From a virus, in IMG/VR virus record IMGVR_UViG_3300026484_000157, positions 1 to 64,000 of that record: a DNA stretch of 64,000 nucleotides; one strand, given 5' to 3'. The notes below the pieces were generated by a model that was not told the origin of the DNA, searched no databases, and saw only the letters and a program-made list of their open reading frames with translations. How positions within the stretch are numbered: the first letter of the stretch is position 1; each line of letters begins with the position of its first letter. Positions 5,678-27,555 of the stretch are shown piece by piece. Both the position numbers and the translations under genes were made by a program.

Positions 5678-6172
5678 ATGGAAAAGTTATCAACTAAATT
5701 AAAAAATTATAAAGATCTACCTTTTGAAGAAAAGATGGATCTAGTCGAAGACATTACTGCTACTATAATCTCTCAATATGGAGAATTATTAGATAGTGTA
5801 GATGGGGAAGATAGAAGTTTTGCAATCGGTTCAAAAGGATATAATGAAGCAGTAAAATCAATGACTTCACTATTAGGGCAATTGTCTAAATTGAACATTT
5901 ACAATCGTGAATCTGCTATGAAAGATAATATAGACTTCAATCATCCAAAGATTCAGAAAGGTATGTATTTCTTAATTGAAGCAGTAATTGATTCTATGAA
6001 AGAATCAGACATTGATGATACTCAAATCGCAGTTTTTTCAAACACTCTTTCTTTAAAATTAGTCGGATTCGAGGATCAATTAAATTCAACACTTAAAAAA
6101 CTGGCTTCAACTCTTGTTGATACTGCCAAAAACCCACTTATTGAAAAGATACTAAATGGTGAGGCAAGATAA
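5678..6172 (+). CDS. Hypothetical helical protein (candidate terminase small subunit)
   Basis: 164 aa, helical, two genes upstream of terL; function inferred from position only. Confidence 0.4.
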   Translation: MEKLSTKLKNYKDLPFEEKMDLVEDITATIISQYGELLDSVDGEDRSFAIGSKGYNEAVKSMTSLLGQLSKLNIYNRESAMKDNIDFNHPKIQKGMYFLIEAVIDSMKESDIDDTQIAVFSNTLSLKLVGFEDQLNSTLKKLASTLVDTAKNPLIEKILNGEAR

Positions 6173-6999
6173 TGAATATTATTGCAGGTATAGTAAATTC
6201 TAATATCAAGATTGGCGACTATAAGATTATCAATAATTCACTATTTAAAAACGAATTATTGATAGGTACTGCATCATTCACTTGGTATAAATATCCAAGA
6301 AAAACATTGAGAATAACCTCATTTAAAATGTCTACTGCAAATAAAAACAAAGGTCATTATAAAGCATTTATAAAAGATCTTATAAATTATAGTGATAAAA
6401 ATAACATAATGACCACATTCCACTCTGTTGCAAGAGTTGGTACTGCAAAACAATCAGAGCATAAAATATTGTTATCTCTAGGTTATAAGCATAATTTTGG
6501 TAAAACAAAAATAGCTGAAATTCAAGATAGTTACTATAGATATCCATCTAAGACTACTCAGGCAATTGAGGGATTATATGCAGCAGTAACATTTACCGAT
6601 TTGACTACATCACAATTGCTTAATATAACTAAATCTATCCCTAATGGAGAGAAAGAGTTCCATTCGACTCTATTATATAGTAGAGTCTCATTGCCAACAT
6701 ATGTTCCACAAGGAGAGATATTTCCAGTCTGGGAAGCTCCATCTAGCTTATATTCTCTTGAAAAATGGATAGATACCGATGGTAAAACAATATTAGTGCT
6801 TACTTATTCTTGTAAAAATTTAGAGGATAGACATTCATATTTAATGAACAAACATAATGCAACTTATGACTTCGATGAATATAAACCACATATAACACTT
6901 TCGTATGATATCCCAGAAGAGTTTAACATAGATAATATAAACATAGAAGAATTAGAAATTCAAATATCAAATGAGTATGCTGAAAAACTAGAATTATAG
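6172..6999 (+). CDS. acb1: Acb1-family 2H phosphodiesterase (anti-CBASS) fused to an N-terminal GNAT-like domain
   Basis: C-terminal half GLYAAV..HSTLLYSR..DGKTILVL..RH..ATYDFDEYKPHITLSY closely follows T4 Acb1/gp57B (two HxT motifs); N-terminal KNKGHYKAFIK..LGY is GNAT-like. Confidence 0.8.
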   Translation: MNIIAGIVNSNIKIGDYKIINNSLFKNELLIGTASFTWYKYPRKTLRITSFKMSTANKNKGHYKAFIKDLINYSDKNNIMTTFHSVARVGTAKQSEHKILLSLGYKHNFGKTKIAEIQDSYYRYPSKTTQAIEGLYAAVTFTDLTTSQLLNITKSIPNGEKEFHSTLLYSRVSLPTYVPQGEIFPVWEAPSSLYSLEKWIDTDGKTILVLTYSCKNLEDRHSYLMNKHNATYDFDEYKPHITLSYDIPEEFNIDNINIEELEIQISNEYAEKLEL

Positions 7000-7023: not shown

Positions 7024-8787
7024 ATGGCAATATCAACTCTTGTATCGAAGATTTCAAAGTCCACATCAATAGTAGATCCAATAACTTTTGCACAATCTCC
7101 AAATTTCTTGGGGATTAACTTATTCCCACTACAAAAGTTCATCATTAAGATTGTATATGGTATGGAATTGGATGATAACTTAAAAGTTCCAATAGTAATT
7201 AAAGATAAGTTCAACGAGGTAGTTCTTGAAGAATTTTATTCTGAAACTGAATTCTTATATTATTTATATGACAACGACTATATTAACAGTTTAGAATTCG
7301 ATGAATCAATTATTGAGATGGTACTAGTGATTGGTCGTAGGGGAACCAAAACTACAATATCATCAATCATAACAGCATATACATTATATTTGCTACTAAT
7401 GAAAGAATCACCTCATGAATATTTAGGAGTGATTAAACAATCAGAAGTTGGGATTGCTATCTGTTCTAATAATAAGGATAATGCATCAAGACAACTGCGA
7501 GAGGTTTCTGCCTTTATTTATGGGAGCAAATGGTTCAAGCCATTTCTTGTGTCAAAAGAACCTGCAGCAGAGGGCTTCTTCTTAAAATCATCTGAACAAA
7601 TTTCAAACCCAGAAAGTAAGATTGGTCACATATTTGTATCAGTATTTGCAGCATCTCCATCAGTTAGGGGTGCATCTAACTTAATAGTTATAATGGATGA
7701 GTATGCCCACTTCATCGATTCTGAAGTTTCAACTAAATCTAAACCACTAGATAAATTATTATATGAGGCACTTACTCCATCAGTTTCTGGTTTCTCTGAT
7801 CCTGATGGTAAGCCATTAGGTAGAGCAATGATAATCACATCACCTAATGGTAAGAAGGGTGAGGTATGGAAGAGAAAGAAAACATCTAGGGACGATAAAT
7901 CTCAGTTGTTCATGAATATTCCATCGTGGTGGATAAATGCAAACTTAGCATCAGCATTTCTAAGAAAGATGTATAATGAATCTGAAGCATCATTTTGGCA
8001 GGAATATGGTGCTAAATTTGTTGAGAAAGAATCTGGATGGATTGAAAATATGGCTAAGTTCAGATCTATGAGAGATTTAGCCCTTAGCAATTCTAAAAAC
8101 AATGGTACAATGAAGAAAAGATACTATGTCGGAGTCGATCTAGCTCTATCAGGGGATGGAACAGCAATCTCTGTAATATCTTATAGCAAAAATCGTGGAA
8201 GAACATTAGAAGATGAAAAACATAATGAACATATCACAAATGAAGGTGTTTATGCGATTGAATATGTTTGGTATAAACTACCAGCCAAAGGTCAGATATT
8301 ATCAGTTAATGAAATAATAGTAGAACTCCTAAGTATAAAAGAACAATTTAATGTTGTAGGTTGGGCATTTGACCAATGGGCATATGATATGTTCGATCAA
8401 TGGCTACAAGAAAAGAATATTAAGCTTAAGAATAAGATGAAGGTATCATCTACACAAGAGTCGAATTCAAACATGGCAAGATTCTTTAAGGCATTGATGA
8501 ATGAAGGGAAGATAGTACTTCCAAATGACGATGATTTATTCTATGAGCTAGAGGCTTTAAAAGAAACATTGTCAGGTAAACATATTAAAGTTGAAAATAC
8601 ATCAGGTCATGATGATAGATTTACTTCAATATTAAGAGCACTTTGGATCGCTCAATCGGATCCAAGAAGAGGTGATATAAATGAGAATAGGATTACTACT
8701 CACAGACAGTATGAAACATTTAAGAAAACTCATCATAAACCACTTCAACAATTAAGAAATAGAACACCTAAAAAACGGAGAAGATAA
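7024..8787 (+). CDS. terL: Terminase large subunit
   Basis: Walker A GRRGTKT, Walker B IVIMDE, ITSPNG coupling motif, nuclease GVDLA and HDDR. Confidence 0.92.
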   Translation: MAISTLVSKISKSTSIVDPITFAQSPNFLGINLFPLQKFIIKIVYGMELDDNLKVPIVIKDKFNEVVLEEFYSETEFLYYLYDNDYINSLEFDESIIEMVLVIGRRGTKTTISSIITAYTLYLLLMKESPHEYLGVIKQSEVGIAICSNNKDNASRQLREVSAFIYGSKWFKPFLVSKEPAAEGFFLKSSEQISNPESKIGHIFVSVFAASPSVRGASNLIVIMDEYAHFIDSEVSTKSKPLDKLLYEALTPSVSGFSDPDGKPLGRAMIITSPNGKKGEVWKRKKTSRDDKSQLFMNIPSWWINANLASAFLRKMYNESEASFWQEYGAKFVEKESGWIENMAKFRSMRDLALSNSKNNGTMKKRYYVGVDLALSGDGTAISVISYSKNRGRTLEDEKHNEHITNEGVYAIEYVWYKLPAKGQILSVNEIIVELLSIKEQFNVVGWAFDQWAYDMFDQWLQEKNIKLKNKMKVSSTQESNSNMARFFKALMNEGKIVLPNDDDLFYELEALKETLSGKHIKVENTSGHDDRFTSILRALWIAQSDPRRGDINENRITTHRQYETFKKTHHKPLQQLRNRTPKKRRR

Positions 8788-10360: not shown

Positions 10361-10492
10361 ATGAATATAATAGTTGGGGTCGGCTCTAAGTCAAATAAAT
10401 TTAGAGCACCATTAAAGATAGTCAAGAAAAAGAATACAGTACCAGAAAACAAATCAGTAGATAAAAAGGAATTTAAGCATGTTTCTAAATAG
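10361..10492 (+). CDS. Small basic protein (43 aa, not in the ORF track)
   Basis: GGAG RBS; MNIIVGVGSKSNKFRAPLKIVKKKNTVPENKSVDKKEFKHVSK fills the portal-protease gap. Confidence 0.5.
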   Translation: MNIIVGVGSKSNKFRAPLKIVKKKNTVPENKSVDKKEFKHVSK

Positions 10493-11279
10493 AACAAGAA
10501 ATGTAATATCATCAACACCAGAAGGTAAAAAATCTGGTTTCACAAACATAAAAATTAACTCATCGGATTTTGTGTTATCACAAATTTCAATTGTTGCTTC
10601 ATGTAATATTGTCGATGAACATGTAATAACACCTGCGACTGTTGAATATATTAATGAGAATCATAATGCATGGTCGAATGAAGATATGAAGAAATATTAT
10701 AAGTCATTCATTGGTGGTCATAATTTCCTTGAACATGAACAAAATGAAAAGAAGTCATATGGATTTATTGCCGATGCTACACTTAGAAAGAAAGAAGTAA
10801 ACGATGATGAATTCATCTATTCTGTTGAGCTATTAATAGCAACTGCAAAAAAGAATACTCCAAATGATAAAATAGCAAAGAAAATATCTGATGATAAACA
10901 AGCTTCATTTAGTATGGGATGCATGTCATCAGCAATAAAATGTTCATATTGTGGTCATGTATCAGTAAATGAAGATGATGACTGCAAACATATAAAGAAC
11001 CAATTAGGTAAACAGTTTGCAACAAACGATGGTGGATTATCTGAAATAGCAATGATTGTTTCAGATGCTACAACTGACTCAACTAAAGGTTATATAACAT
11101 TCATAGAAGCATCGGTAGTTTCTAACCCAGCTTATGTTGGTGCAGTGTTAGGTTATGTCCTTGATATAGAAGATAACAAGGACATCTATTTAAAGATTCC
11201 TAATGAAAACTTAAATAGACCAACATATAACGGTATAAAAACATGGCAATCAAAAAATATGATTACAGTACTAAAATAA
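10479..11279 (+). CDS. Prohead maturation protease
   Basis: FLEH, FSMGC, CSYCG..CKH insert, FIEASVVSNPA; follows the portal gene. Confidence 0.7.
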   Translation: MFLNRTRNVISSTPEGKKSGFTNIKINSSDFVLSQISIVASCNIVDEHVITPATVEYINENHNAWSNEDMKKYYKSFIGGHNFLEHEQNEKKSYGFIADATLRKKEVNDDEFIYSVELLIATAKKNTPNDKIAKKISDDKQASFSMGCMSSAIKCSYCGHVSVNEDDDCKHIKNQLGKQFATNDGGLSEIAMIVSDATTDSTKGYITFIEASVVSNPAYVGAVLGYVLDIEDNKDIYLKIPNENLNRPTYNGIKTWQSKNMITVLK

Positions 11280-16667: not shown

Positions 16668-17047
16668 TATACACTTCTTATTATGGCAATTGGAGAAATT
16701 TTCCAGAGGATTACAAATTGGTTTCTACCTCAGTACACAATCCTGATGGTCATAAATATTTGAAGGCTAAACCATTAAGACCACCTTATGATCTATGGAA
16801 AGCCTATAAATATGAGAATCTATCATGGGAAGATTATACAACATGGTATACTCGTGAAGTATTAGACAAACTAAGCCCAGATAAAATAGCAAAGAAATTA
16901 GATGGATCTATACTATTGTGCTTCTGTCATGCTAAATCCAATTGCCATCGACATCTTCTGAGAGAATGGATGATTAAACATGGTATCAATGTACAAGAAT
17001 TAAAATATAAAGGAATGAAAAATGAAGAAATATCACAAGAGAATTAA
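16664..17047 (+). CDS. DUF488-like protein
   Basis: IYTSYY, L.PP..L, LLCFC..CHRHLL..W. Confidence 0.7.
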   Translation: MIYTSYYGNWRNFPEDYKLVSTSVHNPDGHKYLKAKPLRPPYDLWKAYKYENLSWEDYTTWYTREVLDKLSPDKIAKKLDGSILLCFCHAKSNCHRHLLREWMIKHGINVQELKYKGMKNEEISQEN

Positions 17048-17246
17048 TATTTCAGGTCTGTCGGAAGCAGAAACAAGAAGATTGATTAAACTAATACACC
17101 TAATGAGTTATGGAACACAAGATTACAAGATTAACTACTATGGAACAGACAAAGAGATGATTATTACTAATAGAGATCTACATAAAGACATGAAGATAAT
17201 CAGAAAGACAAGTTACAATAAACATAATGGTTACAATAAAAGATAA
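17022..17246 (+). CDS. Hypothetical protein
   Basis: AAGGA RBS, 74 aa. Confidence 0.55.
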   Translation: MKKYHKRINISGLSEAETRRLIKLIHLMSYGTQDYKINYYGTDKEMIITNRDLHKDMKIIRKTSYNKHNGYNKR

Positions 17247-17267
17247 CTAATAAAAAGGACTCGGAAA

Positions 17268-18050
17268 ATGAATAAATTTCAAAATATATTAGATAGGGCA
17301 ATGCATATTGAAATAAAGGCAGACCCATACACTGGAGATTTTCACTCTGCTAATACAAGAGCAGTATTTAGTGACGAATTCCACTCAAAGTTCATATCAC
17401 CAATAAAAGAAGATCAGATAAAGGCAAAATCGCTAAGAGCAATTGGTAAAGGTCTTGGGTTATCATTATTATATCAAGCATCAAGAAGATCTGCAGGTTA
17501 TACACTATTTTACAATTCAAATGTTGGGGATAGCCCAGAAGAGGCACAAAAATTTGCTGATAAATGGTATAATGGTGTTCCAAACTTTACAAAATCACTA
17601 AAGGACAGAATTGCTGATGGTCATGCCAAAGGATATACTACTAATGCATTTGGTAGAATTAGATATATTCCAAAGATTAATATTGAAGGGTATGAGAATC
17701 GCAAAACAAAAGAATATAACGAAAGAATTGCTACTAACTTTGCAGTACAAGGTCTTGGCTCTGAACAGATCAAATTGGGACTAAAAGAAGTTAACAATTT
17801 TGCTGAAAATAATCAATTAAATTTACATCAAGGCAATCTATCAAATATCAAGGATTTCTATACTAGAATTTTGTCTATTGATGTTGCAAATCCACATCTA
17901 GATGAATTTATGTCGATAGTAGACACATTTGAAGATGGCAACTGTAAGTTGTTGGTATCTGATGGGAATGAACTACAACAAGAATACTCAAGAAGTTTGA
18001 GAATAACGGCAAATATAATCAATGAATTTGGTCTTAAAATTTTATGGTAA
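17268..18050 (+). CDS. Family A DNA polymerase fragment (fingers, motif B, N..VQG); lacks motifs A and C
   Basis: GDFH, R...K...L..LY (motif B), GYTTNAFGRIR, ERIATNFAVQG..SE..K. Confidence 0.85.
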   Translation: MNKFQNILDRAMHIEIKADPYTGDFHSANTRAVFSDEFHSKFISPIKEDQIKAKSLRAIGKGLGLSLLYQASRRSAGYTLFYNSNVGDSPEEAQKFADKWYNGVPNFTKSLKDRIADGHAKGYTTNAFGRIRYIPKINIEGYENRKTKEYNERIATNFAVQGLGSEQIKLGLKEVNNFAENNQLNLHQGNLSNIKDFYTRILSIDVANPHLDEFMSIVDTFEDGNCKLLVSDGNELQQEYSRSLRITANIINEFGLKILW

Positions 18051-18108
18051 TTAATCAACAAATAAACACTGCCTATTATGAAGATAACAACTATAAAAAG
18101 GACAAATA

Positions 18109-19452
18109 ATGCAACCAAGTGATTTAAAACAGCTAGTAACTCAAGAACAATTAGTATTTCTAACAGGTAGTGCAGGGACTGGTAAATCAACTTTAACTAG
18201 AGAATTAATAAAAATGGTAAATAATCCAATAATTTTAGGATCAACTGGTGTTGCATCTGTATTGGTTGGTGGACAAACATATCATAGTTTCTTTAGAATT
18301 AATGGGTCATCGACTCTAACTGAATTAAAATCAGGAGATGAGAGTTTCTGTAAATCTACAGGGATGACAATTCAACAAATTTTATCTAAAATGACAAGAG
18401 CAATTCAAAGTGCAGATATGATCATAATTGATGAAGTATCAATGATATCAAGAGATCATATGGAGTGTATTGAATATCGTCTTCAACAGGCTTGTGTTGA
18501 TATTCCAATTTTATTTGTTGGCGACATGTTACAACTTCCACCAGTAGTAAAATCTGCCAACACTAAGTATTCACCACATGAGAATTTTATTGTAAATCAT
18601 CCATGGTGGGAACATGTAACACCAGTTATGCTTCAAAAAATATGGAGAACAGATGATTTGGATTTCATTTCTGCACTGAATAAAATAAGAGAAGGTACTG
18701 TTGATGACGAGGTTAAGACATTTTTAAAATCACATAGACTTACACCTGATAAATTTGCAAAAATTGATAAAACAAAGTTCACATTTTTGTTTGGTACTAA
18801 TAGCAAAGTAAGACAAAAGAATATAAATGAATTATCAAAGCTTGAGACTAAATCACATATATTCAACCCAAAGCTCATACCAATGGCAATAACACCAAAA
18901 AATAAAGATTATGATACATTCTTGGACAACAATAAAATTTCTACCAATTTAGAATTAAAAGTTGGTGCAAGGGTTATGCTCATTAAGAATAAAAACGACT
19001 ATGAGAATGAGAGTCAATCTTATGTGAATGGTGACACTGGGGTAATTACTGATATCGATTGCAGTTCTACACCAACGATCACAATCAAAAGAGACAGAGA
19101 TGGTGGGATATTATATGTAACTGAGGTTGAATTTGAGAAAATAAAATATGAGAACACTGGTGGAAGTCTTCAAAAAATAGATGAATTTAAAGTCACTGCT
19201 CTTCCAATCATGTTGGCTTATGCAATTACAATTCATAAATCTCAAGGTATGTCTATTTCACATCTTATTATTGATGCAGATGACCTTTTTGCTGATTCCC
19301 AATTCTATGTAGCAGTTTCAAGATCATCAGACCCTAAAAATTTATATATTAGCTGGAAAAAAGAAAGAACTAATATGTTAATACATGCAATAACTAAGGT
19401 TAATAAGAAAATGGTTAACTATTATAAATCTTTAGAGAATAAAGGGGATTAA
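18109..19452 (+). CDS. Pif1/RecD-like SF1B DNA helicase
   Basis: GSAGTGKS, IIDEVSM, GDMLQLPPV, AYAITIHKSQG, YVAVSR. Confidence 0.92.
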   Translation: MQPSDLKQLVTQEQLVFLTGSAGTGKSTLTRELIKMVNNPIILGSTGVASVLVGGQTYHSFFRINGSSTLTELKSGDESFCKSTGMTIQQILSKMTRAIQSADMIIIDEVSMISRDHMECIEYRLQQACVDIPILFVGDMLQLPPVVKSANTKYSPHENFIVNHPWWEHVTPVMLQKIWRTDDLDFISALNKIREGTVDDEVKTFLKSHRLTPDKFAKIDKTKFTFLFGTNSKVRQKNINELSKLETKSHIFNPKLIPMAITPKNKDYDTFLDNNKISTNLELKVGARVMLIKNKNDYENESQSYVNGDTGVITDIDCSSTPTITIKRDRDGGILYVTEVEFEKIKYENTGGSLQKIDEFKVTALPIMLAYAITIHKSQGMSISHLIIDADDLFADSQFYVAVSRSSDPKNLYISWKKERTNMLIHAITKVNKKMVNYYKSLENKGD

Positions 19453-19453
19453 A

Positions 19454-20074
19454 ATGTGGAAGGATATAAGTGGCAAAACATTATATGATTTCAAAAGGAA
19501 TATACACCAAGATTATTTGGCAACATTCCTAGCAATTCATGATGAGTGGGATATTATCATAGATAAACACCTGCTCCAACCAATAAGTGTAAAAATAAGT
19601 GATATCCTAGAAAATCGTAAAATATTCAGTAAGTTAGGATACTCATTTGTAAGATTTAAGTTTGATATTGAATTTGACAGCGAACATGGATCATTTGTGC
19701 CAGAATCATCTATGAATGCCTTTAACTACTCTCTAAAACGATTTAAAAGATTAGATGATAGTTATGCTAATGGCAGTGAAGATTCTTCTGTGCAACAGAA
19801 CCAAACAGAAACTGTAACTGCACCTATAACTGAGTCTGTTGTTGAAAACGAAGAGCCAGAAATAGAAATACTAAAAATTCAAATAAACATGACAAAAGTA
19901 AAAGAAGCCAAGTTCGAAGGTGTTTTGAAAATACTATCATCATATGAAGGTGTTGATTGCGAACTATATGTAGAGCACAACGGCAATATCTACAAACAAG
20001 ACAAACTATTAGACTATTCTAAACTATCTGCATTTATTGAAAAATCAGGAATTCCATCTTCTACAATTAAATAA
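19454..20074 (+). CDS. Family A DNA polymerase C-terminal fragment (motif C) with an extra C-terminal domain
   Basis: FLAIHDEWDII (HDE at 19538-19546), then ILEN..FKFDIEF..GSF as in PolA C-termini; acidic linker and a further ~70-aa domain. Confidence 0.7.
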   Translation: MWKDISGKTLYDFKRNIHQDYLATFLAIHDEWDIIIDKHLLQPISVKISDILENRKIFSKLGYSFVRFKFDIEFDSEHGSFVPESSMNAFNYSLKRFKRLDDSYANGSEDSSVQQNQTETVTAPITESVVENEEPEIEILKIQINMTKVKEAKFEGVLKILSSYEGVDCELYVEHNGNIYKQDKLLDYSKLSAFIEKSGIPSSTIK

Positions 20075-21278: not shown

Positions 21279-22142
21279 ATGAGCAGAATGACAAAAGCAG
21301 AAAAAAGAAAAGTAATCGCAAAGCTGATCAAGAGTCCTGAGGGAAGATCTGAAATTGCAGCAGCACTTCAAGAACCTTTAAGAGAGTTCAGAGACTATGA
21401 AACAGTTGGTCGTAGAGCATTTATGGTAGATCAACTTCCAGATGGTGCATTACCATACTATGATAAAGATCCAGAATTAACAGCATATACTGTTGGTGAG
21501 GAAGGACAAGATATCGTTGAAGTTATTAAAGGTGATAGAGTTTTCGTTCCACTAAGAGAGATTGCTACTAACCCAATGATTCCATTGACTCAGATCAAAT
21601 CAAGAAAATATGATGTTGAATCAAGAGTTCAAAATAAAGCTAAATCTGAAATGTTCAAACAAGAAGATCAAGTTGTTTTTGACTTATTTGAAAAAATATC
21701 AAGTGCAGATGATGCAGTTAATGAGCCAATTGCAGTTTCAGCTGATGATGTATCTATTGATACTTTTAGTGAAGCAATGGGACAAATTGAAGAGCATGGT
21801 AACATTAGATGTGCAAATATCTTCATGAATGCTTCAAACATGAAAATTGTTAGAAGACTAGGTAAAGATTACTTTGAACCAGCTACAACTTCTGAGTTGC
21901 TTAAAACTGGACAAATTGGTAGTATTTTCAACTCTACAATCCATACAAGTCCACTTATTGGTAAAGATACACTTTACTTTACTGCAGAGCCAGAATTCTT
22001 TGGTGTGTTTGTTGAATCAATTGAACTTTCAGTTTTACCAGCAGATGAACCTGCTAAAAGACAAATTGGTTGGTCGATCTTCGAACAAATCGGAGTACTT
22101 GTACACAACTCTAAAGGTTTATCAGTTATCAAAATCGGATAA
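21279..22142 (+). CDS. Major capsid protein (HK97 fold)
   Basis: DQLPDGALPYYDKD, VFVPLREIATNP, EDQVVF, G.IF...I..S, IGWSIFEQIGVLVHN; strong RBS and downstream terminator. Confidence 0.85.
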   Translation: MSRMTKAEKRKVIAKLIKSPEGRSEIAAALQEPLREFRDYETVGRRAFMVDQLPDGALPYYDKDPELTAYTVGEEGQDIVEVIKGDRVFVPLREIATNPMIPLTQIKSRKYDVESRVQNKAKSEMFKQEDQVVFDLFEKISSADDAVNEPIAVSADDVSIDTFSEAMGQIEEHGNIRCANIFMNASNMKIVRRLGKDYFEPATTSELLKTGQIGSIFNSTIHTSPLIGKDTLYFTAEPEFFGVFVESIELSVLPADEPAKRQIGWSIFEQIGVLVHNSKGLSVIKIG

Positions 22143-25503: not shown

Positions 25504-27555
25504 ATGGCAGCACCATATAGCATAGTAAAAGAGGTAGACTTATCTACTAGAGTACCTTCATTTCCAGGAGTATACGGAGCGATGGTAATACCAGCAGTTA
25601 AAGGTAGCACTGAGCCTTTTTTAGTTACTAGTGAGAAACACTTCCTAGACAACTTCTCTGAAAATGGTAAAGTTGAAATAAGTTATGATCTATCTTATTT
25701 TTCTGCAATTCAATACTTAGGTGGATCTAATAAACTGTGGGTATCAAGAGCAGTAACTAGTCCAAAATTATCAGCTATTGTTTTTAGCACAGGTAATCCA
25801 ACTAAAAATACAAATATGTCAATTTCTTATCCAATGTCATATGACTTTGGTCAAACTGGAGATTTTGGGATTATTTATTCTGCAGGTACAGGTACTTGGT
25901 TTGAACAATTAGATGTTGAGATCCATAAAGGGACTAAAGATGATACATTTGGTATCACTGTTTATAAATTTGATGAGGAATTAGAAACATTTGATAACCT
26001 AACTTATTCTACAGTTGAAAATGAAATTAACTATAACTCATTATATATCAGAGTTGAAACAAATCAAATGACAAATGATGATAAAGTTAAAGAGTTGGAA
26101 GATAAAGGTACTGATGGAAGAAGATCAGCATTCGAAGGTGCAGATGGTGCAGTATTATCAAGTATTAAAATCAAAACTAATCCAAATGGCGATCCAATCC
26201 CAACTGTAAATGTAATATCTGGATCTGCTCCTCATGATGCAGTAGCAGATAGATGGTCAGGAACACCAACACCAATTTCAAATCCTGATGGATATCCATT
26301 AGATGCAGATGATTGTTTCATGATTACATCAGCTAATGTCGGTTTTTGGGGTAATAACATCCTTGTTACAATCACATCAAATGACAGTAGAATTAAAGAG
26401 CCTAAGTCTAAAAATCCATTTGTAATTGATGTTTATAAATCAACTGATTTAAATAATCCAGTTGAGACTAAAATAGTTACTAGACTTAAAGGTGTTAAAG
26501 ATGGATATGGTTCAAGCATGTACATTGAGGATGTACTGAAATCATCAAATTATATCAGAGCATATGATAATCCAATTGTGGATGAATCAGTAATGCCTTT
26601 TGATCTTGCAGTTGACTTTAATGGTATACAAGTTCCAGTTCCTGAGAGTATGGATTTAGGATCTAACGGTACTGGTGTTTCAACTGGTGCAATTATCAAT
26701 TCATCTGATAAGCTTAATGCTAAACAAAGTTACCCAATCACATTGTTAATGGATAGTGGATTATCATTTATTCCATACCAACAAAACCTAATTAAAATAG
26801 CTGAGAAGAGACAAGATTGTGTTGCAATTTTATCAACTCCTTTAAGTTTAGAGCTTTCTGCCAACTATTTAAATGAATTGGTTACATGGAAAAATAGCAA
26901 GTTTAATCCAAATACAAGTTATGCAGCATTATATACACCACATGTAATAATCTATGACAAAGATAATGATAGAGAAGTTCCAGTTTCTCCTGATGGTATT
27001 GTTGGATCGCTAATTAGTAAAACTGCTTCAAATTATGAGATTTGGTATCCAGTGGGTGGAAGAAAAAGAGGTAAAGTTATTGCTCTTGATTTAATCAGAA
27101 GATTTAGTGATGGAGAATTGGATTATTTATATGACAATTCAATCAATCCAATAAAATTTATGGTTGGTAAAGGTATCACTGTTGAAGGTCAGAAGACATT
27201 ACAAGCTTATGCTAGTTCACTAGATAGATTAAATGTTAGACTTATGTTAATTGTTATTGAAACAGCAATTATGGAAGCAATGGAGAATTTCAAATTCGAA
27301 CTTAATACTGCAGAAACTAGAGTTATTGCTAAATCAATTATTGATAACTACATGGAAGGTATTAAAGCTAGAAAAGGTGTTTATGACTACCTTACAGTAT
27401 GTAATGATACAAATAACTCATCAGAGGATATTGATAACCATTTACTAAATGTTATGTTGCTAGTTAAACCAACTCAAGCAATAGAATATGTGGAGACAAC
27501 AGTTGTTATTACAAGAACTGGCATGGACTTCAAAGTTGCAGCAGCAGCAGTATAA
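25504..27555 (+). CDS. Tail sheath protein
   Basis: EVDLS, RQDCVAILS, W.P.G.KRG, INPI..GI.V.GQKTL, LDRLNVR, FELN, KPTQAIEY. Confidence 0.93.
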   Translation: MAAPYSIVKEVDLSTRVPSFPGVYGAMVIPAVKGSTEPFLVTSEKHFLDNFSENGKVEISYDLSYFSAIQYLGGSNKLWVSRAVTSPKLSAIVFSTGNPTKNTNMSISYPMSYDFGQTGDFGIIYSAGTGTWFEQLDVEIHKGTKDDTFGITVYKFDEELETFDNLTYSTVENEINYNSLYIRVETNQMTNDDKVKELEDKGTDGRRSAFEGADGAVLSSIKIKTNPNGDPIPTVNVISGSAPHDAVADRWSGTPTPISNPDGYPLDADDCFMITSANVGFWGNNILVTITSNDSRIKEPKSKNPFVIDVYKSTDLNNPVETKIVTRLKGVKDGYGSSMYIEDVLKSSNYIRAYDNPIVDESVMPFDLAVDFNGIQVPVPESMDLGSNGTGVSTGAIINSSDKLNAKQSYPITLLMDSGLSFIPYQQNLIKIAEKRQDCVAILSTPLSLELSANYLNELVTWKNSKFNPNTSYAALYTPHVIIYDKDNDREVPVSPDGIVGSLISKTASNYEIWYPVGGRKRGKVIALDLIRRFSDGELDYLYDNSINPIKFMVGKGITVEGQKTLQAYASSLDRLNVRLMLIVIETAIMEAMENFKFELNTAETRVIAKSIIDNYMEGIKARKGVYDYLTVCNDTNNSSEDIDNHLLNVMLLVKPTQAIEYVETTVVITRTGMDFKVAAAAV

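Follow-up and report, generated by a model that had tools for sequence, protein, structure and literature searches.

The question raised by the locus described here is how a tailed phage encodes a family A DNA polymerase (PolA) when the motifs of this enzyme lie in separate genes. The single-chain PolA is the textbook right hand made of one polypeptide, in which motifs A and C supply the two catalytic Asp residues. The window analysed is a stretch of 64,000 nucleotides, positions 1–64,000 of the IMG/VR record IMGVR_UViG_3300026484_000157 (126,269 bases in full), and coordinates above 64,000 refer to the remainder of this record. In the window, the open reading frame (ORF) at 17268–18050 encodes the fingers of a PolA and the ORF at 19454–20074 encodes its motif C, with a helicase gene between them. 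A preliminary description of the window had proposed that the catalytic motifs are spread over at least three chains, and the analysis of the whole genome agreed with this: motifs A, B, and C were found on three polypeptides, and a fourth carries the exonuclease and the thumb. Judged by descent and motifs, the encoded protein is a PolA that is not single-chain. The reading that we consider probable is a split PolA, encoded by five ORFs at three places of the genome, the products of which would give four non-covalently associated chains with a composite active site assembled in trans.

The pieces are numbered below in protein order. Piece 1 (exonuclease and thumb) is encoded at 76419–78287 and 79091–79384, piece 2 (motif A) at 71371–72195, piece 3 (fingers) at 17268–18050, and piece 4 (motif C) at 19454–20074. 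The five ORFs, at 17.3, 19.5, 71.4, 76.4, and 79.1 kb, are thus out of order in the genome, in which motifs A, B, and C do not share a polypeptide.

Piece 3 is a protein of 260 residues encoded in an intact frame on the + strand (17268..18050). It begins just before GDFH, runs past N..VQG into an extra C-terminal domain, and terminates without any HDE. The Pfam model DNA_pol_A (PF00476) matched piece 3 with an E-value of 2.3e-13 over profile positions 199–326 of 381, and PHROG 17 (DNA polymerase) matched it with E 2.4e-13. The comparison with a profile of seven canonical phage PolAs by hhalign (99.5%, E 3.8e-23) gave a match beginning approximately seven residues past motif A, and the assignment to a family A polymerase made in the preliminary description holds. 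In this alignment, GDFH (residues 23–26, 17334..17345, + strand) is the counterpart of the canonical DIH that opens the fingers, LRAIGKGLGLSLLYQ (residues 56–70, 17433..17477, + strand) corresponds to motif B, R..aK..nFg.lYG, of the canonical PolAs, and NFAVQG (residues 157–162, 17736..17753, + strand) represents the conserved N.PIQG element of the fingers. The family comprises nine sequences of 26–61% amino-acid identity with intact frames and identical end points. G23 and H26 of GDFH, R57, K61, G64, L65, and L67 of motif B, as well as N157 and Q161 of NFAVQG, are invariant in all nine sequences, and Y69 is found in eight of them. Relatives of 260, 256, and 263 residues share 61, 38, and 40% identity with piece 3, respectively, and the cluster of the nearest relative consists of seven members, each exactly 260 residues long. 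Searches of viral and metagenome contigs using piece 3 alone or the alignment A1 found no related loci.

Piece 4 (206 residues, intact frame on the + strand, 19454..20074) is composed of the palm strands around motif C (residues ~20–90), a linker, and a C-terminal domain. Its motif C, IHDE (residues 28–31, 19535..19546, + strand), was aligned to VHD(E) of the canonical PolAs both directly and via a distant relative, L030b, that is described below. The sequence FDIEFD (residues 70–75, 19661..19678, + strand) was aligned to the terminal '..vD...G' strand, the last palm strand of PolA. An exhaustive homologue search with piece 4 returned 61 representatives at E ≤ 0.001, piece 4 itself included. 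Fifty-nine of the other 60 are proteins of 81–217 residues that match from near their own residue 1. The exception is P0063 (407 residues, match at 257–327), a natural fusion of pieces 3 and 4 that has the same start as piece 3 and retains the end domain of piece 3 as an internal insertion before motif C. For the alignment of the family, 55 of the 61 sequences were used, while five short or N-truncated ones (P0044, P0055, P0059, P0061, and P0065) and the fused P0063 were left out. H29, D30, E31, D71, and E73 are invariant in all 55 sequences, and the motif C region is colinear with those of P0063 and L030b, in agreement with the earlier assignment of motif C and the terminal PolA strands to this gene. 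The lengths of the piece 4 representatives, together with the constant length in the cluster nearest to piece 3, indicated that the stops bounding the pieces are not errors.

The window lacks motif A, the thumb, and the exonuclease, as had been noticed from its letters; PF00476 matched the whole genome only at 17409–17819. A gene ending just after motif A had been predicted to lie elsewhere, and it was found at 71371–72195 with the help of a more distant relative. In this relative, L030 (record G009, 197 kb), the polymerase has a two-piece form, in which an N-piece of 556 residues is directly followed by L030b, a protein of 596 residues. The N-piece contains an exonuclease and matched positions 11–124 of 381 of PF00476 (E 1.5e-17). 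The single chain of L030b carries VAFDFSAIEPR, GDFH, motif B, N.PIQ, SIHDE, and the terminal strands; it matched PF00476 at positions 197–361 of 381 (E 8e-21), and its alignment with the canonical PolAs begins at motif A and reaches the last strand (hhalign 97.4%, E 9.3e-12). It should be noted that the two polymerase pieces of this relative (L030:2387-5834) overlap by 14 nt and that, on either side of motif A, its C-piece has Cys-rich insertions resembling zinc ribbons.

When residues 1–262 of L030b were compared with all ORFs of the genome, a single match was obtained, namely the + strand ORF at 71371–72195 encoding 274 residues (E 2.1e-7, over residues 2–187). The motif A piece maps on residues 8–197 of L030b (E 2.1e-7), piece 3 on residues 262–442 (E 3.4e-9), and piece 4 on residues 448–503 (E 4.1e-7). 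The profile of the piece 4 family, A3, also matched the 598-residue PolA frame of G009 near its C-terminal end (E 2.8e-16). As L030b holds everything from motif A to motif C on one chain, it links each of the pieces to the canonical PolAs. The motif A protein has IIPAFRKSIG at residues 52–61 and VVFDISAQEPV with D162 and E167, and its DISAQEP was aligned to DFSQIEvR of the canonical PolAs through L030b. A simple search for the canonical motif A pattern missed DISAQEP because the pattern demanded an aromatic residue after the Asp. Homologues of 272–307 residues are present in six records (G002, G003, G004, G006, G007, and G008), and the D, Q, E, and P of motif A are invariant in all six aligned sequences. 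In the ESM Atlas, the best named row for this protein was a viral cluster in which 15% of the members have PF00476 (score 0.90), which we take as a lead only.

The remaining exonuclease–thumb part, expected elsewhere in the genome, was found at 76419–79384, where it is divided between two ORFs on the + strand. The first of them (piece 1a, 76419–78287, 622 residues) matched PF01612 (E 3.1e-7) and PHROG 17 (E 5.6e-25). It carries the exonuclease motifs FDLETTG at residue 116, HNAIYD at 190, and YAVSDA at 274, and the Exo I–III columns D, E, D, Y, and D are invariant in all four relatives. The N-piece family matched the seven canonical PolAs (hhalign 99.9%, E 1.3e-32) through GT.TGR and N.QQ, and it covered positions 616–970 of PHROG 17. 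N-pieces of 572–591 residues occur in G002, G003, and G004, three of the five records of related loci (the other two are 32% and 53% fragments), and N-pieces were found in G006–G010 as well. All of these stop approximately 35–45 residues past N.QG, in a helix-like acidic tail without a conserved Asp. The homologue search with residues 430–606 of the relative P0007 returned only P0007 itself, and a PDB sequence search with P0007 found exonuclease domains only.

Piece 1a runs through the exonuclease and the thumb to LNLNGTD and then continues with CVIKDTPI for 133 residues to its stop. The ORF at 79091–79384 (piece 1b, 97 residues) opens with MKRYDYIANGFVCHN|TGRYS...LPNMQGLS, that is, with a putative intein C part of 15 residues followed by an extein with TGR..N.QG. 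The thumb, the TGR motif, and an N.Q..P-like motif are thus all present when GTD|TGRYS..LPNMQGLS is read across the junction. Between the two ORFs lies a + strand gene at 78256–79104 for a protein of 282 residues, which matched PHROG 559 (E 4.8e-46) and PHROG 9084, annotated as homing endonuclease (E 5.1e-23). The intein-less P0007 (606 residues, 41% identity, E 4.8e-114) crosses the same junction uninterrupted (..NISGTDTGRYSNAKT.. / NISGTD-TGRYSNAKT) and ends where the 97-residue ORF ends; all five members of its cluster have 606 residues. The candidate intein starts with Cys (NGTD|CVIKD) and ends with His-Asn followed by Thr (NGFVCHN|TGRYS), and its N part found the VidaL intein 6vgv in the PDB by phmmer (E 0.004 over 95 residues). 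Because of the continuity of P0007 across the junction, the Cys and HN|T ends, the VidaL match, and the homing endonuclease PHROGs, we read piece 1 as interrupted by a split intein with a free-standing homing endonuclease gene, in the layout known as a 'fractured gene'.

Two further intein-like elements were seen. A related N-piece in the record G010 (L032:2402-3511) has an intein-like insertion inside the Exo III motif (NAYIYA|CVVGSTQ), which suggests that inteins entered this polymerase at more than one site. In the genome studied here, a UvrD/PcrA-like helicase of 767 residues (79406–81709; L003:15406-17709) has in its P-loop (AGAGC|VAYDTPI) an apparent mini-intein of ~150 residues; Pfam recognises the helicase only from residue 180 onwards, a relative has 607 residues, and the match to TIGR01445 (intein_Nterm) is weak (E 0.11).

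The division into four pieces is not peculiar to one genome. All four were found as separate ORFs in six records of 79–100% completeness (G000, G002, G003, G004, G006, and G008), and the fragments G001, G005, G007, and G010 hold subsets of them. Pieces 3 and 4 are separate in all eight records of the clade in which both were found. In the five IMG/VR loci retrieved by a search with a 12-row alignment, they are separate ORFs of 250–276 and 172–206 residues, and in G006 and G008 they are likewise separate. In a tblastn search of 50,697 phage records, pieces 3 and 4 and P0007 retrieved at most distant canonical PolAs, and piece 4 had no match there.

These results bear on the idea that mobile elements wrecked a polymerase gene and left the pieces as decaying relics. 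Homing-endonuclease-like ORFs do occur close to or at the breaks: three of the five related loci have them immediately upstream of piece 3, and one locus has such an ORF between pieces 3 and 4. The absence of canonical motif A in the simple pattern search could also be read as decay. However, the frames are intact with the same ends in nine piece 3 sequences and 55 piece 4 sequences, the nearest cluster of piece 3 keeps its length in all of its members, and the catalytic residues are invariant. The preliminary description had also considered that a separate intact polymerase might exist; the genome gave no matches to PolB (PF00136) or Pol III alpha (PF07733) at E ≤ 1, and hence no second polymerase gene of these kinds. 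Since the split is conserved, we regard the pieces as neither relics nor products of misassembly, and decay in particular as highly improbable. It can be added that L008, L009, and L011 contain several large (415–563 residues) homing-endonuclease-like paralogues, some adjoining polymerase pieces and others adjoining the major head protein gene.

Conserved pieces might also have ceased to be one polymerase and have taken on separate roles, for example as a stand-alone proofreading exonuclease and as DNA-binding accessory proteins, while the host replisome copies the phage. In all six genomes examined for this (our own and the five related loci), pieces 3 and 4 sit between the gene of the head maturation protease and those of the scaffold-like and major head proteins, an odd spot for replication genes; two of the pieces have no family match of their own, and the genes are dispersed over 17–79 kb. 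Against such separate roles, the PolA catalytic residues are invariant on each piece, whereas a loss of function would not preserve them, and the four pieces co-occur in every one of the six clade records of at least 79% completeness. In addition, the phage brings a replication apparatus with it, comprising a clamp loader, a DnaB-like helicase, a ligase, a RecA-like protein, and a ribonucleotide reductase. We therefore consider separate roles unlikely and keep to the split polymerase. The head-morphogenesis block that holds pieces 3 and 4 is far from the other replication genes.

The gene between pieces 3 and 4 (18109..19452, + strand) encodes a Dda/Pif1-like helicase of superfamily 1B with 447 residues, which matched PF05970 (PIF1, E 9.3e-25) and PHROG 325 (Dda-like helicase, E 1.4e-58). 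The preliminary description had noted its position between the two pieces, which the related loci do not share. In three of the five loci, the pieces adjoin each other, with spacings of +47, +1, and −7 nt and in differing frames; of the other two, L007 has four unrelated genes between the pieces and L011 a homing-endonuclease-like gene of 563 residues. The helicase is not between the pieces in any of the five, and its homologues are located elsewhere in both complete relatives, G003 and G004 (two of the five records searched). As the pieces are split without the helicase and the helicase lies elsewhere in the relatives, the break between the fingers and motif C is old and the helicase a later arrival in this phage only, incidental to the split and not part of it.

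The same comparison bears on the suspicion that the helicase interrupts a single gene only through misassembly or chimerism. The record was assembled from a metagenome, and piece 4 contains in its linker a 45-bp exact direct repeat (19764..19808, + strand; 45/45 identical by blastn to 122663–122707 of the genome) at which the Logan contigs break. On the other hand, the interval 18050–19454, for which a check of read coverage had been proposed, lies inside a Logan contig of 23,255 nt, re-assembled independently from run X1 (possibly the source sample), which spans 17000–19793 with no differences. A 130-nt contig of a second study runs from the end of the helicase gene into piece 4 (19377–19506); at the junction of piece 3 and the helicase (18050–18109), the only coverage comes from the run that is possibly the source sample. 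In addition, the split is found without the helicase in seven other records, and we give an assembly artefact almost no weight. The repeat encodes ANGSEDSSVQQNQT; its second copy lies in the linker of a Tad2-like gene (anti-Thoeris, PF11195, E 3.1e-26), and it looks like a recent recombination joint.

The three junctions without an intein could in turn be covalent after all, through protein splicing that escaped recognition, RNA trans-splicing, introns, or programmed frameshifting. This idea gains something from the split intein used at one junction of the same enzyme and from the fact that pieces 3 and 4 abut or overlap in three related loci. Nevertheless, the intein-less ends have no Cys/Ser/Thr and HN signature, and piece 3 ends in a domain of a folded family, which P0063 retains internally. 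The differing frames and spacings between pieces 3 and 4 in the three loci leave no common frameshift. The search of the window and of 64–84 kb against Rfam found no families and, therefore, no recognisable intron, and the genes are separated by as much as 59 kb and do not follow the protein order. Each of the three ORFs within 17268–20074 has its own Shine–Dalgarno-like site and an intact frame, in line with what had been described for the window: AAGGA stands 8–9 nt ahead of the ATG of piece 3, and AAAGGGGA precedes the ATG of piece 4, which begins 1 nt past the helicase stop. A covalent union of these chains is accordingly very unlikely in our view.

Both pieces encoded in the window end in an extra domain. 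In piece 3, it comprises residues ~190–260 (17835..18047, + strand), is kept in all nine family members, and has no counterpart in the L030-type relative. In piece 4, it comprises residues 139–206 (19868..20071, + strand). The AF2 model of piece 4 had a mean pLDDT of 83.5, with 93–97 in this domain, which was modelled as a beta-alpha-beta-beta-alpha-beta fold. The structural comparison of the C-terminal domain by VIA-align gave 2hpi_A (Z 8.2, root-mean-square deviation 2.3 Å, 66 aligned residues, chain positions 1128–1200), followed by 5fku_A at Z 6.1 (2.4 Å, 67 aligned residues, 1078–1155) and a next row at Z 4.3, where values of Z under 8 may reflect a common arrangement only. All of the top six rows of Foldseek were Pol III alpha (best E 3.2e-3). 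The model thus indicates that the last 68 residues of piece 4 fold like the C-terminal domain of Pol III alpha. The palm part of the model (residues 5–87) reached only Z 2.9, to the Taq-derived polymerase 8xjr_A, which is too weak to count, and a PDB sequence search with profile A3 gave nothing relevant.

The end domain of piece 3 (nine sequences) and the C-terminal domain of piece 4 (55 sequences) are homologous to each other (hhalign 92.5%, E 4.8e-7). The lead to the common domain came from a joint alignment of P0063 and both piece families (A5), which was misaligned by MAFFT and was not used for folding. The extra end of piece 3, for which a role as a docking module had been suggested, is therefore better understood as a domain of ~70 residues that piece 4 shares and P0063 retains than as an ad hoc tail. 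The likeness to Pol III alpha is one of fold, at 9% sequence identity; in addition, the parent polymerase here belongs to family A, not C, and the domain is present in two copies. In E. coli alpha, residues 1078–1160 form the last sub-domain, the tau-binding part. The C-terminal region 917–1160 of Pol III alpha has been described as binding the clamp, single-stranded DNA, and tau (PMC3799427).

The window also encodes a clamp loader (317–1456), which matched PF13177 (E 5.6e-20) and the clamp loader PHROG (E 5.2e-44). By analogy with Pol III alpha, a link between it and the C-terminal domains of pieces 3 and 4 may be put forward purely as a hypothesis. An extended form of the split polymerase would be an obligate four-subunit family A replicase, in which three small proteins, carrying both catalytic Asp residues and the deoxynucleotide-binding helix, are mounted on the exonuclease–thumb scaffold, the duplicated Pol III alpha-like domains tether it to the clamp loader of the phage in a holoenzyme organised like that of Pol III, and the genes in the head block time the complete polymerase. 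We regard this extension as a speculative possibility, on the doubtful side. An ORF of 346 residues that follows the clamp loader gene (region 317–2497) matched no Pfam, PHROG, or NCBIfam model; its position and size could fit a sliding clamp.

Taking the gene anatomy, the homology of the pieces, the conserved breaks and catalytic residues, and the absence of another polymerase gene as observed, we propose the following mechanism. Protein trans-splicing of the split intein would unite the halves of piece 1; pieces 2, 3, and 4 contain no intein, and the four chains would then associate non-covalently into an enzyme with palm, fingers, thumb, and exonuclease. D162 of piece 2 and D30 of piece 4 would form the two-metal site, while R57, K61, and Y69 of piece 3 would bind the incoming nucleotide. 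The breaks may have arisen stepwise. The one after N.QG would be the oldest, since it is common to the L030-type relatives, and those after motif A and before motif C would be younger; the helicase would have moved between pieces 3 and 4 later still, in this phage only. The homing-endonuclease-like genes at the junctions in relatives point to gene fracture driven by endonucleases. A complex prediction for piece 3 (alignment A6) with piece 4 (A3) gave 0.22 and 0.17 against a mark of 0.32, without controls, and is evidence neither way.

Several points weigh against the split polymerase as an assembled enzyme. Splicing, assembly, activity, and the endonuclease origin are what the sequences suggest and not what was observed, and copying of the phage by a host polymerase is conceivable. 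For the intein, TIGR01443 matched with an E-value of 0.1, below its cut-off, and no Pfam intein model matched at E ≤ 0.01. Its C part has only 15 residues, and its block B reads T-R-H, where the usual pattern is T-x-x-H. If it did not splice, piece 1 would stay cut inside the TGR motif. The AF2 prediction for P0007, made from a four-row alignment, had a mean pLDDT of 36.7 and was unusable, so it offered no structural view of the junctions. Neither piece 4 nor the motif A protein has a match of its own in Pfam, PHROG, or NCBIfam. DISAQEP lacks the aromatic residue found immediately after the Asp in the seven canonical sequences. The direct hhalign comparisons with the canonical PolAs found the correct positions but were weak, with E 0.067 for the motif A family and E 0.047 for piece 4, and for this reason the assignment of both pieces rests on L030b and P0063. 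It should be noted that piece 4, for which a failure to align with the PolA palm had been considered, does align with it at the expected place, weakly when compared directly and also through L030b.

By its other genes, the source virus is a tailed phage. The completeness of the record was estimated at 100% by CheckV, the GC content is ~31%, and 142 of the 158 ORFs of at least 100 residues lie on the + strand. The window carries genes for the large terminase (7024–8787), the head maturation protease (10479–11279), the major head protein (21279–22142), and the tail sheath (25504–27555). In the region 6172–6999, a protein of 275 residues has an Acb1 anti-CBASS domain (PF23474, E 3.3e-27) in its C-terminal half. 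The best NCBIfam match of a protein of 493 residues (121018–122499) was PurZ, succino-amino-deoxyadenylate synthase (E 5.3e-34, below the cut-off), and that of the polymerase N-piece (76419–78287) was DpoZ (E 1.5e-10, far under the cut-off); a gene resembling all-alpha dUTPases was noted with these matches, among the regions 121018–122499, 70223–70897, and 76419–78287. From these matches, the phage might use 2-aminoadenine in its DNA.

The distinctive point here is that the polymerase domain of a PolA is itself cut three times and is kept so across a clade of ~100-kb phages. If the enzyme works, a PolA palm can be built from separate chains for motif A and motif C, and the phage offers a natural system for communication between fingers, palm, and thumb, as well as a natural template for the engineering of split polymerases. 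It would also mean that homing endonucleases and inteins can convert one gene into a multi-subunit enzyme. As two of the four pieces have no family match, automatic annotation would give a truncated polymerase or none. In the literature covered, which was partial and excluded supplements, we found no report of a PolA cut inside its polymerase domain or having motifs A, B, and C distributed over different chains.

The closest known case is that of the T7-like cyanophages (S-SBP1-like, 'clade B'), in which the exonuclease and polymerase domains of PolA are encoded by two genes (Czernecki et al. 2023, PMC10201439; also PMC12695635). The abstract of PMC10201439 calls this split the first such in PolAs. 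Both systems concern family A, with more than one gene and junctions without inteins, and the cyanophage authors likewise inferred a non-covalent association. In the cyanophages, however, there is one break, at the boundary of the exonuclease and the polymerase, whereas in the phage studied here three intein-less breaks fall within the polymerase domain; one follows N.QG, one follows motif A, and one precedes motif C, and motifs A, B, and C consequently lie on three chains. Only here are there an additional intein break and scattered genes out of order, and only here is the exonuclease still fused to the thumb.

Split polymerases of other kinds are known as well. A split Pol III alpha occurs in jumbo phages. 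In the marine OM43 phages MEP401 and MEP402, a DNA polymerase is encoded by two genes with a small unrelated ORF between them, for which the authors suspect an intron (PMC10580990); an unrelated ORF between polymerase pieces is common to both cases, but there are two pieces in the OM43 phages.

The region 76419–79384 resembles the 'fractured genes' described by Dassa et al. 2009 (PMC2677866), in which the halves of a split intein flank a free-standing homing endonuclease gene: the order is again a gene part with the intein N part, the endonuclease ORF, and the intein C part with the rest of the gene. The fractured genes named in the available part of that paper are those of DnaE, NrdJ, terminase, ligase, IMPDH, gp41, and an SbcD-like protein, with no family A polymerase among them, and their homing endonucleases form a Vsr-like family. 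Unlike in those genes, the 15-residue intein C part here places the break between the last two intein blocks. The intein-less fractured SbcD-like gene of the same source, with short inserted residues at its break, resembles the intein-less junctions of our polymerase. The same text mentions that the family B polymerase gp43 of some T4-like phages is encoded by two genes and that a homing endonuclease splits NrdA of phage Aeh1, and it states that both reassemble into working enzymes. Those, too, are essential replication enzymes of phages broken into genes, with or without an endonuclease gene in between; they consist of two pieces from adjacent genes, and gp43 belongs to another polymerase family, whereas here four pieces are encoded in three loci.

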